Assembly (NCBI GenBank): GCA_965214095.1
Contig: OZ243938.1
Span: forward strand, 64,001-128,000
Length of the DNA stretch: 64,000 bases
Reading direction: 5' to 3'
Source of the DNA: Candidatus Poribacteria bacterium
Lineage (GTDB): Bacteria; Poribacteria; WGA-4E; WGA-3G
Shown here: piece after piece, positions 14,953 to 18,263 of the stretch
Position numbering within the stretch: position 1 is the stretch's first letter
Layout of the letters: the number at the start of each line of letters is the position of its first letter
Notes under the pieces: generated by a model
What the model saw: the letters and a program-made list of their open reading frames with translations, nothing else
What the model was told of the DNA's origin: nothing
Database searches by the model: none
Translations under genes and position numbers: made by a program

Positions 14953-15708
14953 TTATTCGTTATATTTAACGCTGGTAAGTGACAACCCGTGTGCAGGTGC
15001 TGATGGACCTGCCATTGATCTATCCCTCAACTCCATAATATCATGAAACATCTTACATGCTACCTCTACATTTCTGTTTGCTTTCTTCATGCATTTCAAT
15101 GCAGTGCCAACAATTGCACGAACCATTCCTCGCAAAAACGAATCTGCTTCAATTTCAAAAAAGACATAGTCATCTGTTCTATAGCAACTTGCATCGAAAA
15201 TCTCACACACAGGATTCAATCTATCGCTTCCCGTTTTTTGAAAGGAAGAAAAATCCAATTTACCATTCATGCAGCGACAAATCGCATCAAGTGAATCAAC
15301 CGCAATTGGTAATGAGAACAAGTATGCTGTGTGCCGTCTCAGTGCTGATGGATAGTCTCTGTTTAGAATAGTATACCTATATTGTCGACTCTTAGCACTA
15401 AATCTTGCATGAAAATCTGTTGGCACTTCATCAACATCTGTAACAACAATATCTCGTGGTAAAAAGGTGTTAAGTCCTTTTTGAAAGGCTATCGTTGGAA
15501 TTGATAATTCGGTAAAGAAGTTTGCCACTTGTCCTTCTGCGTGCACGCCAGTATCTGTCCTACCAGCACCGATAATCTGAATCGGAGTTTTCGTAAGCTG
15601 TGCCAAGGCATCTTCAACCTTATCCTGAATTGTAGGAAGTTCCGGTTGCTTCTGCCATCCGTGATAATTAGTGCCATCATATTCAAGTACAAGTTTGATA
15701 TTTCTCAT
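14953..15708 (-). CDS. truA: tRNA pseudouridine(38-40) synthase
   Basis: YDGTNYHGWQ, AGRTDTGVHA, FHARF and FLRGMVR motifs. Confidence 0.95.
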   Translation of the reverse strand: MRNIKLVLEYDGTNYHGWQKQPELPTIQDKVEDALAQLTKTPIQIIGAGRTDTGVHAEGQVANFFTELSIPTIAFQKGLNTFLPRDIVVTDVDEVPTDFHARFSAKSRQYRYTILNRDYPSALRRHTAYLFSLPIAVDSLDAICRCMNGKLDFSSFQKTGSDRLNPVCEIFDASCYRTDDYVFFEIEADSFLRGMVRAIVGTALKCMKKANRNVEVACKMFHDIMELRDRSMAGPSAPAHGLSLTSVKYNE

Positions 15709-15743
15709 TCTGCCACATTGAAACAGATTTGTATTCGGATTAC

Positions 15744-16175
15744 TTGACCGCTCCTACACCTAAAGGAGTGGGATTCTTGTTCCTACTCCGAGCAATTTAG
15801 GATTTAGATTTATGCCACTTGCAAAGTCAATCTATTGGGTCATCTTCCTCACTTTAGAACATGTGTTCCGTGTGAGGTTTCCCACTCCAGACATGATGTC
15901 TTGTTGGGACAACACAGGTTACAAAACCTGCGGTGCGGGTCATGAGGCACTCTACGGAAAACTTTGTTGCTTACAAAGCCGACCGATACTTTTGACTGTC
16001 AGTTACAGTGTCAAAACTTATGAATATATCAGCGTTCCTATCTTTCAAGGCTTTTCGCTTATGTTTCATGTTTTTCGCAGTGTCTTGGTTTTCTGCATCT
16101 GCTCATTCCGCTACAAAGGAGTGGTAGAGAACATTAGCAAGGAATGCCAAAGTTGTAATTCTCTACCAGCAGATG
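15744..16175 (-). ncRNA. Putative ~430-nt structured RNA (omega-RNA-like 3' end)
   Basis: Starts just downstream of a consensus promoter, contains at least 7 visible stem-loops, and ends at the IS right-end TCAA. Confidence 0.5.
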
Positions 16176-16180
16176 TCCGA

Positions 16181-16209
16181 ATTATACTACATTTTAACTA
16201 TAAAGCCAA
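16181..16209 (-). promoter_or_regulatory. Sigma70-type promoter inside the non-autonomous element
   Basis: TTGGCT-17 bp-TATAAT on the minus strand. Confidence 0.65.
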
Positions 16210-16293
16210 GTGTTTTTGATTAACAAACATAACGGTTTCCGTTGGACATCACAAACCTAAAGGATTGGGTTTTGAACGGAACGTCCTGATAAG

Positions 16294-16321
16294 ATTATCA
16301 TATACTATATTCAGGTGTCAA
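16294..16321 (-). promoter_or_regulatory. Probable ancestral truA promoter stranded between two IS elements
   Basis: TTGACA-16 bp-GATAAT on the minus strand in the 55-bp inter-element spacer. Confidence 0.45.
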
Positions 16322-16348
16322 ATGAAATTGTATATATGATATATTCAA

Positions 16349-17611
16349 CTACCCAAGCCTAAAGGCATTAGGATTGTTAAGAGGTTCAAACAGCGATAAC
16401 TGAATGATTTTCTTCTCCATAGCCTTTGTTGCTTCGTTCTTGTTTCTCGTTTCATAGAGGGTGGTAACCCACCGCTCTCCACGACGGGCAGCAGCTGCCC
16501 GAAAAAGTCCGTTTATTGCAGCGTTGTGGTCTCGGTCAAGCGAGTGTCCACAATATCCGCAGTTGAATGTCCGCACCGATAGCGATATTTTTTTCGGTGC
16601 TTTCTGTCCGCAGCAAGAGCAAGTTTGCGAGGTGTTCTTTGGATCGACTTGGTAGAAATGGAAACCGTCTCTTTCGGCTATGTTCCCACACCACTCAAAG
16701 AAGTGTGCCCAAGACGCATCGCTGATACTCTTGCTGAGGTGTTTGTTCTGAACCATATTGGCAGTATTTAGATTTTCGGTTACCAAGACATTATTTTTCT
16801 TATGATGGTAGAGTTTGTAAACGAGTTTACCGATAAAGTCTCTGCGTCTGTTTACAGTGCGCTCCTGATGTAAAGCGAGTTTGTGTTGTTGTTTCTTTCT
16901 ACGGTGAGAACCTAACTTTTTACGAGAAAGGTCTTTAGCGTGCTTGCGGAGTAATCCCTCCGCTTTGCGATACCAACGCGGGTTGTCAACTTTTTCACCC
17001 TCAGATGTCGTCAAATAGTGGTTCGTGCCGACATCAACGGCAACAGCACGGGTCGGTTCCACTTTCGGTGTATCACCAATGTCGCAGGAGATATGTGCAT
17101 ACCACCCGGAGGCTTTTTTCACGATAGTAACCTCTTTCGGGTCACCTTGGATGGGACGGGACATCCGCATCTTGATTTCACCGAGTTTGGGCACAATCAG
17201 TCTATCTAAACGGTGCTTCGTTGGACGAATAGGATTTTGACGAATGCCTGCTTTGTTCTTACGTAGACTCCAGGTGAGAGAACGGATACGTTTGCGATAG
17301 CGTGGGAATCCCGGTTTTTCACCACCTTGTTTGACACGACGGAAAAAGTTCGCAAAAGCTTTGTTCACACGTTGAAGTGCGTGTTTCTGAAACTCTTGCG
17401 GCACAATGTCGAAGTCTTCATACTTTGCACGTGCTTGTGTCAGAAGTCGACACTGTTCAGCATAACTTACAGAACGTTTCTTTTCTTCATACGCACGCAT
17501 ACGATTCAGTCGCGCTGAGTTGTGTAACTCACACAAATGCGAAAGATATTGATATAACTCGGTTTCTTGCGTAGGTGTCGGATACAAGCGGTATTTGAAC
17601 GTTAAAACCAT
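16349..17611 (-). CDS. tnpB: RNA-guided endonuclease TnpB
   Basis: FKYRLYPT N-terminus; RuvC residues AVDVG, VTENL, DRDHNAA; zinc finger CSCCG/CGYCG. Confidence 0.95.
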   Translation of the reverse strand: MVLTFKYRLYPTPTQETELYQYLSHLCELHNSARLNRMRAYEEKKRSVSYAEQCRLLTQARAKYEDFDIVPQEFQKHALQRVNKAFANFFRRVKQGGEKPGFPRYRKRIRSLTWSLRKNKAGIRQNPIRPTKHRLDRLIVPKLGEIKMRMSRPIQGDPKEVTIVKKASGWYAHISCDIGDTPKVEPTRAVAVDVGTNHYLTTSEGEKVDNPRWYRKAEGLLRKHAKDLSRKKLGSHRRKKQQHKLALHQERTVNRRRDFIGKLVYKLYHHKKNNVLVTENLNTANMVQNKHLSKSISDASWAHFFEWCGNIAERDGFHFYQVDPKNTSQTCSCCGQKAPKKISLSVRTFNCGYCGHSLDRDHNAAINGLFRAAAARRGERWVTTLYETRNKNEATKAMEKKIIQLSLFEPLNNPNAFRLG

Positions 17612-18027
17612 TATTTACCTCGCTGGTTCTCTACATACTTGCGAAGCACTTCTAAAGTGATACCCCCTGTGGAGGCGATAAATCTAGAACGCGTCCAAAG
17701 CGAGGGAATACGAGATTTCAGAGAGGGATACTCATCACGCAACACACGAGAAGTCCAACCTTTGATCTTGCCAACGACAGATGCAGGAGCGAGTTGGGGA
17801 CTACTACTCATCAGAATATGAACATGGTCATCCATCACTTCACAGGCGTGCACTTCATACCCATAAACCTCTTGTTGTTCATAGATCAGTGTTTTGAGCC
17901 GTTCAGCAATAGGAGAGACAAGCACAGGACGACGATATTTTGTGCACCAAATCACATGGTAATCACAACTATAGACTAAAGAATGAGTTGATTTGTAGGT
18001 AGAGGGTTTTTCTTTAAGTTCTAACAT
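17611..18027 (-). CDS. tnpA: IS200-type Y1 HUH transposase
   Basis: YHVIWCTKYRR, DHVHIL (HUH), SLWTRS and YVENQ motifs. Confidence 0.95.
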   Translation of the reverse strand: MLELKEKPSTYKSTHSLVYSCDYHVIWCTKYRRPVLVSPIAERLKTLIYEQQEVYGYEVHACEVMDDHVHILMSSSPQLAPASVVGKIKGWTSRVLRDEYPSLKSRIPSLWTRSRFIASTGGITLEVLRKYVENQRGK

Positions 18028-18175
18028 TCTATATATTCATTTATTAGATATATATTATATATAATAACATATATTTAGTTAATAGTCAAATATATTTGGG
18101 CTAAAGCAAAGAAAAGTCCTCATATCCCAAGTCTAAAGACTTGGGCTTCACGGACTATGAGAGGTGAATTATAAC

Positions 18176-18263
18176 TATAAGTTGGCACCCGAGACCCACG
18201 GTAGGCAAGGTTTCCTAACCTCGCCGATGCAGAGTGTTCAAGTAATTTCAAAATCTACTATAA
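18176..18263. repeat. 88-bp dispersed repeat containing a GTAG REP-like hairpin (copy 1)
   Basis: Near-identical to 36702-36789: TATAAGTTG.CAC...GACCCACGGTAGGC.AGGTTTCCTAACCTCGCC...AAATCTACTATAA. Confidence 0.85.

Follow-up and report, generated by a model that had tools for sequence, protein, structure and literature searches.

The DNA analysed here, referred to as the window, is a stretch of 64,000 nt from Candidatus Poribacteria bacterium (GCA_965214095.1, contig OZ243938.1, positions 64,001-128,000 of the forward strand). Between a complete IS605-type insertion sequence (IS) and a truA-like gene, it contains a 545-bp element of the IS200/IS605 type that encodes no protein, i.e., a PATE (palindrome-associated transposable element). 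This element, its relatives and the structured RNA specified by its interior are the subject of this work. An earlier reading of the letters of the window, called the original prediction below, had proposed a mobile protein-less element expressing a large structured RNA at this position. The following features define the boundaries and the promoter of the element:

15744-16288, minus strand: protein-less IS200/IS605-type element (PATE), 545 bp, base-for-base absent at the orthologous site of genome G032 and with full-length relatives that have the same ends
16289-16292, minus strand: TTAT target motif adjoining the left end on its 5' side, the predicted transposon-associated motif (TAM)
16233-16283, minus strand: nested subterminal hairpins of the left end, outer stem CGTTCCGTT/AACGGAAAC, inner hairpin CCCAATCC-TTTA-GGTTTGTG
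16181-16209, minus strand: internal promoter TTGGCT-17-TATAAT, sigma-70-like with 10 of 12 consensus positions, predicted start ~16175
15744-15772, minus strand: right-end hairpin CCCACUCC-UUUA-GGUGUAGG (15772-15751) and tail GAGCGGUCAA, helices 13-14

Ends, mobility and gene content of the element

Read along the minus strand, the element starts with CAGGACG at 16288, directly after TTAT at 16292-16289 (opening sequence CAGGACGTTCCG), and finishes with GGAGCGGTCAA at 15744. HUH-type ends had been predicted on this strand, and both boundaries turned out to be exact. In G032 (locus L056) the site is empty: window 16344-16289 is joined directly to 15743 onward, with flanks 94-96% identical, and the junction (slash) reads AATCTTAT/GTAATCTGAATAC, or GATAATCTTAT/GTAATCTGAATAC with longer left context, i.e., CTTAT/GTAATC. 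Since the site is uninterrupted in G032, the 545 bp constitute an insertion on the 3' side of TTAT that left the target unduplicated, which is the signature of the IS200/IS605 group. The same TTAT precedes the left end in 7/7 aligned copies and in 65/65 distinct insertions from the collection scan, the regular expression of which admitted only T[TA]AT at the target while the raw flanks show TTAT. Both ends carry subterminal palindromes and no terminal inverted repeats, and the right-end helices covary. The left-end hairpin architecture recurs in relatives and in TnpA- or TnpB-bearing IS of the same genomes (nhmmer matches): the left end of the element matches tnpB-only IS in G000 and G003 and a tnpA plus tnpB IS in G064, with the right-end architecture in common as well. 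The inner left-end hairpin of the window copy has two mismatches. The exact right-end pattern was found at 24 places in five genomes, all of them within such elements or in two solo fragments. These orthologous ~100-nt right-end fragments (L215:2220-2320 and L216:2322-2422) lie downstream of a ~385-aa non-TnpB open reading frame (ORF) in G003 and G020 and may be remnants of an old copy.

A search for copies in the genome itself and in relatives had been suggested; relatives and the empty site were found, but the own genome holds a single full copy, apart from two left-end matches of 40-46 nt, which rules out a multi-copy element there. BLAST over 61 genomes gave matches in 24, all from the same genus: 23 of the 36 congeners searched had a match, and the 24 genomes representing three other families had none. 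The matches include full-length relatives at 69-71% identity in G014 and G025 and a 534-bp subfamily in G003 and G020, the copies of which are 97-98% identical to one another. All aligned copies follow the scheme TTAT/CA...GAGCGGTCA(A/G/T)/ within unrelated flanks. The element is mobile because its site is empty in G032 and its relatives share identical end motifs within unrelated flanks, and the mobile, protein-less nature proposed in the original prediction is thereby confirmed.

To cover a wider range, bacteria and archaea, each species represented by one genome, were scanned with an exact degenerate core pattern, which yielded 94 stretches, 80 of them listed. Among those listed, 79 belong to records with Candidatus or uncultured Poribacteria in the title; the other stretch, from a Clostridiales metagenome-assembled genome, has no profile match and was taken as chance. 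The pattern loci gave 66 full-length elements, 493-589 bp long and set in 65 distinct pairs of flanks; tnpB is absent from all of them. A 589-bp subfamily in G064 (the genome of locus L163; loci among L121-L197) comprises 37 copies, 36 of which are sequence-identical at different sites, pointing to a very recent burst. With a covariance model of the core, the family was located in 11/40 genomes of the genus, with at least one to 12 copies each, counts that are lower bounds (81 candidates scored per genome). The family is mobile, patchy in its distribution and recently active; the plasmid collection contained no match to the element.

Neither strand has an open frame that is kept across the 14 aligned members or across 30 distinct sequences. 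In the latter set, the longest stop-to-stop frames span 50-113 codons in sense and 45-147 codons in antisense orientation, and the frames shift between subfamilies. The 10-codon frame MQKTKTLRKT, singled out in the original prediction, exists in the window copy but is not conserved, and in the G003 copies its ATG is followed by a stop. When four TnpB proteins were used in tblastn, nothing significant was obtained (best E 0.2); with hints at E 0.2-0.38 at best, including a 27-aa zinc-finger/RuvC-III stretch in one member, a protein remnant of tnpB was ruled out. An antisense ORF of 135 aa (15812-16219, plus strand), rich in cysteine and phenylalanine, was rejected as a gene, with no Pfam match and a frame not kept in the family. 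Similar N-termini in the two closest relatives are seen only because the DNA is conserved, and gene callers may wrongly annotate this frame.

The RNA and its relation to the tnpB 3' end

Downstream of the promoter, the interior of the element is made up of the following parts:

16099-16172, minus strand: 5' leader domain P1, a long hairpin with an apical GGCA..UGCU stem and a side hairpin, helices 1-4
16077-16096, minus strand: small hairpin P2 (GCAG..CUGC) at the presumed deletion junction, helix 5; 2/4 pairs covary (UA/CG, AU/GC)
15909-16051, minus strand: central domain, homologue of the tnpB 3' end (omega-RNA 5' part), with CUUGAAAGAU, AAAGUAUCGGUC, UUCCGUAG and hairpin P6 with loop CUCAUGACCC
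15937-15943, minus strand: AUGACCC copy (a) in the P6 loop, on stem GUGC/GCAC (15950-15933), at ~-195, complementary to the tail GGUCA
15837-15843, minus strand: AUGACCC copy (b), part of the conserved AAGAUGRCCC and ~95 nt away from the right end, at invariant positions
15724-15743, minus strand: flank that a read-through transcript would carry as its guide according to TnpB biology, GUAAUCCGAAUACAAAUCUG

The promoter hexamers picked out in the original prediction are kept in the aligned relatives in TTGACT/TATAAT-like form. Judged from the sequence, transcription would start near 16175, and the distance from there to the right end is ~430 nt. The large structured RNA that had been predicted for this region is backed by covariation. 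With six sequences, RNAalifold returned a consensus of 92 pairs, 33 of them compensatory, and with 12 sequences one of 73 pairs, 43 of them compensatory. For 71 of these 73 pairs in the 12 sequences, covariation was counted against two controls, in which partners were slid by 1-3 columns or the alignment was shuffled 500 times. Standard pairs occupied 92.7% of the cells compared with 40.3-50.8% for slid partners, 43 pairs were changed on both sides compared with 9-15 for slid partners, and the number of cells changed on both sides was 143, with 45.6 expected from the shuffles. For four of the five measures the observed value was reached in 0/500 shuffles and for the remaining one, further standard pair types, in 30/500; kinship among the sequences inflates the shuffle tests, whereas the slid-partner control is free of such inflation. 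Folding of the single sequence gave a minimum free energy of -132.2 kcal/mol compared with -108.0 +/- 6.3 for shuffled versions (z = -3.85; 0/100 shuffles as good).

Of the stems named in the original prediction, the multi-stem 5' domain together with TTTTGAC/GTCAAAA, CTTTGT/ACAAAG and CAGGTT/AACCTG corresponds to helices 1-4, 7, 8 and 10 of this fold, all with compensatory changes. Both-side changes affect 14/21 pairs in P1, and helices 6-10 of the central domain covary; in the P6 stem (helix 9), UA occurs in seven, CG in three and AU in two sequences. Three further stems had been predicted, of which AGACA/TGTCT and CCTCAC/GTGAGG are located in a length-variable region; the third is TAGATT/AATCTA. 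G-U pairs, which would become C-A in the complement strand, are frequent in several helices and therefore fit an RNA of the minus strand. The RNA matched no Rfam family: Rfam 15 gave 0 matches at the gathering score in the 64-kb window, and the models of HEARO and the IStron group I intron had no match even at E <= 10. Rfam covers only some omega-RNA lineages, so this negative result lowers an omega-RNA claim little.

A connection to tnpB appeared on both sides of the interior. Positions 5-196 of the family DNA profile, comprising the left end, the promoter and the 5' hairpin, match (nhmmer) directly upstream of a 393-aa tnpB that is present in four copies in G003 (L112-L115), with a fifth in L096, and in these IS the 5' hairpin is the leader preceding the ribosome-binding site and the ATG. 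At the 3' end of the L112-type tnpB, the stretch that begins with the codons for YHRDG and finishes at the stop has the sequence AAAAGUAUCUGG-hairpin-CCGUAGUGGCGGCCAUGGCACCGCC and its counterpart in the element AAAAGUAUCGGUC-hairpin-UUCCGUAGAGUGCCUCAUGACCCGCACCGC, with AAAGUAUC, CCGUAGUG and AUGGC as common motifs. We built a covariance model from 13 protein-less elements, without any tnpB sequence, and searched 47 loci (163,155 bases). Over model positions 1-141 it aligned to all four L112-L115 tnpB 3' ends, with modest scores of 20.3-21.4 bits and roughly calibrated E-values of 0.0045-0.0085. A fifth match was truncated at the end of its locus (E 0.96); otherwise only the element itself was matched in the TnpB loci, with no match to the 13 other TnpB loci of G000. 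Window 16051-15909 shows homology, confined to nucleotides and structure, to the terminal ~120 nt of tnpB, which reach from the RuvC-III HRDG codons to the stop. The statement of the original prediction that no RuvC or zinc-finger remnant is left has to be revised in this respect, as the interior aligns to the tnpB 3' end, in the form of RNA and not of an open frame.

As the left end, promoter and leader match a tnpB-only IS and the covariance model matches the tnpB 3' end, the element is, from its sequence, best read as a tnpB-deleted derivative with an enlarged omega-RNA. The RNA is not a new class. Nor is "oversized", the term originally applied to it, appropriate: ~95 nt of the RNA are the 5' leader hairpin of the parent tnpB transcript, and part of the rest consists of hairpins missing in the tnpB-linked version, which lacks helix 7. 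The intact TnpB next to the element, to which the original prediction had drawn attention, belongs to a separate IS605 insertion that is absent in G032; it is only 23% identical to the L112 protein, i.e., to the clade of the RNA, and the covariance model does not match the 3' end of its gene at E <= 1. The parental clade is represented in the own genome by one TnpB, 43-44% identical to the L112 protein and with the same 3'-end motifs, which resides in a TTAC-targeting IS.

The two AUGACCC copies and the terminal GGUCA, from which an omega-RNA pseudoknot had been postulated, are present and conserved. The tail GGUCA(A) is complementary to the AUGACC of both copies, and a pseudoknot involving the tail is likely. 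RNAalifold paired the 3' tail with copy (a) in the set of six sequences and with copy (b) in the set of twelve; the bases of the latter pairing (helix 11) are invariant in the family, without a both-side change, and covariation is silent here. Subfamilies with the tail GGGGUCA have six contiguous pairs with copy (a) and no recognisable copy (b). In tnpB-linked IS with the tail UGUCA, the loop reads UGGCA (L112), UGGCAU (the TnpB IS of the own genome) or UGACA (L214), and therefore the fifth pair changes from C-G to A-U in three tnpB-linked IS. In the ISDra2 omega-RNA, nucleotides -5 to -3 are paired with -103 to -105 (PMC10097598).

A probable guide RNA in trans and alternative explanations

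We consider it probable that the element is a non-autonomous IS200/IS605 PATE descended from a tnpB-only IS and that its RNA acts as a TnpB-type guide in trans, a function suggested by analogy to characterised systems. In this scenario, an ancestral tnpB-only IS would have lost nearly the whole tnpB frame and kept the left end, the tnpB promoter with the 5' leader hairpin, the terminal stretch of tnpB that specifies the omega-RNA scaffold, and the right end. TnpA acting in trans would insert the element as single-stranded DNA 3' of TTAT. The promoter at 16209-16181 would give rise to a ~430-nt RNA that continues past the right end of the element into flanking sequence. Its 3' ~300 nt would represent an enlarged TnpB-type omega-RNA, the tail of which (GGUCA), directly before the flank-derived guide, would find its pairing partner in an AUGACC loop. 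Loaded with this RNA, a TnpB from another locus would cleave the empty site (TTAT plus flank), and such cutting would favour retention or re-copying of the element. We infer the start and end of the transcript, its binding by TnpB, its guide activity and the TnpA and TnpB serving it from these comparisons. Mobilisation as single-stranded DNA is presumably accomplished by a Y1 TnpA in trans; matches to Y1 TnpA number five in G000, three in G003, two in G020 and six in G064, where one adjoins a parental-clade TnpB in an IS with a PATE-like left-end hairpin. The 20-mer flank GUAAUCCGAAUACAAAUCUG is unique in the genome at <=2 mismatches, which fits a homing guide and not an exapted regulator; on the same grounds, an exapted guide with a second genomic target was ruled out. 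The original prediction had left the choice between a guide and a new RNA cargo: homology to the tnpB 3' end and the possible tail-loop pairing favour the omega-RNA.

In RNA libraries, those with any of the stretch contained only 0.08 of the sampled words. One 434-nt contig (X1; X4 is identical and probably the same data) covers 15741-16019 with 21 mismatches and 10 gaps. It stems from a relative with ~89% identity and extends 41 nt past the right end and, in the 5' direction, 112 nt into sequence unlike the window. Nothing from X11 aligned, and neither X1 nor X4 covers 16020-16411; these libraries show neither expression nor silence of the element. The contig, which shows no strand, ends or RNA template, is consistent with a read-through transcript of the relative.

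A cognate TnpB was sought through the right-end pattern, which returned only PATEs and the two solo 100-nt fragments next to the non-TnpB ORF. The last 50 nt of the element are identical at 28-45 of 50 positions across all TnpB lineages compared and do not discriminate between them. TnpBs of the parental clade occur in 22/40 genomes of the genus. G064 has two of them as single-copy genes, 70% and 59% identical to the L112 protein, and a parent IS was sought in this 36-copy genome and rejected, as only the left-end hairpin is common. An L112-type IS is not the immediate parent; the right-end search turned up no TnpB gene that ends like a PATE.

Several observations weigh against a guide function in trans. 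No TnpB gene in G000, G003, G019, G020 or G031 has the exact right end of the family; G019, with three element copies, has no match to the L112 protein at E <= 1e-60, the TnpBs of G020, with 12 copies, are only 42-48% identical to it, and the single parental-clade TnpB of the own genome, where the element itself is single-copy, belongs to the IS that targets TTAC and not TTAT. Moreover, the covariance model, with its modest scores and roughly calibrated E-values, has no match (E <= 1) at this own-genome TnpB. Between 15500 and 16700, Rfam at E <= 10 produced seven matches, all unrelated, the best of them with 22.3 bits where the gathering score is 60. L213 is at odds with the pseudoknot, and the partner that RNAalifold chooses, copy (a) or copy (b), varies with the sequence set. 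Finally, the contig is the sole RNA evidence, comes from a relative and might reflect DNA carry-over.

If the omega-RNA ancestry were mere history, the RNA might be a cargo with a TnpB-independent role, serving another effector, its own stabilisation or processing, or regulation. Its length of about twice that of the tnpB-linked counterpart and the extra hairpins P1, P2 and helix 7, which are kept by compensatory changes, would be in line with such a role, as would the lack of a TnpB gene sharing the family right end and the proliferation without a close parental-clade TnpB, with 12 copies in G020, three in G019 and 36 identical ones in G064. We regard this as unlikely, however: the most conserved parts are those common to the tnpB 3' end plus the tail beside the flank, a new function is unnecessary for the 5' hairpin, which is found as the leader of an intact tnpB as well, no Rfam family, ribozyme or riboswitch matches, and the incompleteness of several of these genome assemblies devalues the argument from an absent TnpB. 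A bolder idea arises because no cognate TnpB was identified, which is the main weakness of the guide interpretation: an RNA-only selfish lineage may have moved beyond its TnpB origin, and its extra domains (leader hairpin, P2, helix 7, variable region and the duplicated AUGRCCC strand) would then work via a distant or different effector or independently of TnpB. This appears improbable; if true, it would explain the 36-copy burst in a genome where the parental TnpB clade consists of two single-copy genes.

Documented PATEs that arose by core deletion of IS605-type elements in Haloquadratum (PMC3119063) invite the thought that the element is a functionless deletion remnant copied by TnpA, with an RNA that is idle if made at all and a fold inherited and not selected. 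The single copy in the genome and the two mismatches in the inner left-end hairpin would suit a remnant, yet lineages that are only 67-71% identical still have standard pairs in 92.7% of the cells, both-side changes affect 143 cells vs 45.6 expected, the promoter hexamers are conserved and hairpins have been gained, not lost, in comparison with the tnpB-linked form, all of which makes idleness quite unlikely. IS200/IS605 transposition uses folded single-stranded ends, and the hairpins might accordingly be single-stranded DNA structures for transposition, or the element might be a mobile outward promoter, here for truA: it lies downstream of the likely native truA promoter and ahead of the start of the gene at 15708, in the same orientation and with no terminator-like site after it. 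We deem both very unlikely. The structure spans the whole interior, far from the ends, and contains many G-U pairs that are impossible for the other strand, and no co-orientation bias was seen across 59 distinct sites (24 same, 34 opposite, one none; a crude ORF-based test), which speaks against a mobile promoter for downstream genes.

The guide interpretation agrees with what has been described for PATEs elsewhere. PATEs were defined in Haloquadratum walsbyi as protein-less IS605-type elements, some of which originated by core deletion, with one retaining C-terminal tnpB sequence (PMC3119063), and PATEs of Geobacillus stearothermophilus were stated to often encode omega-RNAs that need TnpBs encoded elsewhere in trans (Meers et al., bioRxiv 10.1101/2023.03.14.532601); an IStron study described TnpB as equally active with omega-RNA supplied in trans (10.1101/2023.11.20.567912). 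As in these PATEs, the element has no gene, carries subterminal palindromes and not inverted repeats, is inserted at a short motif without duplication, shares its ends with TnpA- or TnpB-bearing IS and would have originated by core loss. Unlike the published PATEs, as far as the passages compared describe them, it occurs in another phylum (collection records titled Candidatus Poribacteria), keeps the parent promoter and leader with the omega-RNA part enlarged by covarying hairpins, and has diversified to 67-71% identity with the fold kept, with bursts of copying in Poribacteria. Trans use of PATE RNA by TnpB is already in print (bioRxiv 10.1101/2023.03.14.532601), and what is new here is the Poribacteria family. 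Among the papers listed in a literature search, none tied Poribacteria to TnpB, IS200/IS605, omega-RNA or MITEs (miniature transposable elements with inverted repeats), and on standalone or trans-acting omega-RNA only the general papers cited here turned up.

Like the ISDra2 TnpB omega-RNA (PMC10097598), the RNA lies at the 3' end of the element by the flank, derives from the tnpB 3' coding region and possibly pairs its pre-guide tail with an upstream strand, and the TAM would equal the target motif. In contrast to ISDra2 as given there, the element has no tnpB in cis, its RNA has a predicted length of ~430 nt vs a 116-nt ordered scaffold and a 247-nt construct, two candidate pseudoknot partners exist at ~-195 and ~-95, and no Rfam family matches. 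The tnpB-only IS of G003 (L112-L115) share with the element the TTAT target, the nested left-end hairpin, the promoter, the leader, the tnpB 3'-end motifs and the right-end architecture, but carry an intact tnpB and the tail GUAUGUCAG instead of GAGCGGUCAA, and lack helix 7 and the variable region. The omega-RNA of IscB and IsrB (HEARO) and the IStron group I introns are likewise large structured RNAs on elements of the IS200/IS605 family. The HEARO guide is at the 5' end, upstream of iscB. In the element, unlike HEARO and IStron, the promoter is internal, the RNA would exit through the right end and there is no Rfam match.

A protein-less "guide-only" element is of an expected but rarely documented kind. 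If its RNA functions as proposed, the family would offer a clean natural case of a guide RNA that is separated from its nuclease gene and spreads as a 0.5-kb element, with promoter, leader and omega-RNA persisting and evolving as RNA after the loss of tnpB. Free of coding constraint, the omega-RNA has kept its fold by compensatory changes and gained hairpins, and the pseudoknot-strand motif is present in a second copy. The many natural variants, with known boundaries and TTAT as TAM, could be used to ask which TnpBs accept foreign guides. For annotation, the family accounts for a class of "empty" repeats, ~0.5 kb long, that Poribacteria genomes contain.

Neighbouring insertions and the truA gene

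The genes and the IS that surround the element are as follows:

14953-15708, minus strand: truA-like gene, 251 aa, Pfam PseudoU_synth_1 match
16349-17611, minus strand: TnpB gene upstream of the element, 420 aa, with OrfB_IS605, Cas12f1-like TNB and helix-turn-helix domains
17611-18027, minus strand: Y1 TnpA gene upstream of the element, 138 aa
16343-18170, minus strand: complete IS605-type element (tnpA plus tnpB), inserted after TTAT and missing at the orthologous G032 site

The neighbouring IS605 occurs in four copies in the genome that are 98% identical, and their common sequence is bounded by window ~18168 and ~16343. Its right end is located 6 nt past the tnpB stop, and therefore its omega-RNA would lie within tnpB. 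As the other three copies stop at ~16343, the 545-bp element is outside the IS605, and the possibility that it is part of the latter was ruled out. The IS605 abuts or interrupts the end of a ~100-bp repeat (18164-18259) that has an internal GC-rich hairpin GGCGAGGTTAGGAAACCTCGCC and TAT/TATA-like flanks and is found in >40 genome copies at 91-95% identity; it looks like a MITE. G032 lacks the IS605, the adjoining repeat and the element, and therefore this intergenic region has been hit several times in the window.

Between the right end of the element (15744) and the ATG of the 251-aa truA-like gene there are 36 nt. A consensus scan revealed a strong promoter-like site, TTGACA-16-GATAAT (16321-16294, minus strand; 11/12 consensus), which is also present in the uninterrupted sequence of G032 and is probably the native truA promoter. 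The element was inserted ~5 nt downstream of the -10 box of this site, which is now 545 bp farther away from truA, so that the insertion separates the gene from its likely promoter. Element and gene point the same way, and there is no terminator-like site beyond the right end; transcription of truA now probably runs through the element or begins in it.

A second, more distant protein-less family of ~516 bp exists in the same genome in three copies (C1:3916758-3917274, 4732574-4733090 and 1997613-1998129, the last equal to L043:2672-3188). It targets TTAC, ends in GAGCCGTCAG and has the same layout of promoter and leader hairpin, and its left end is common to the TTAC-targeting tnpB-only IS at ~C1:2247167-2248556.

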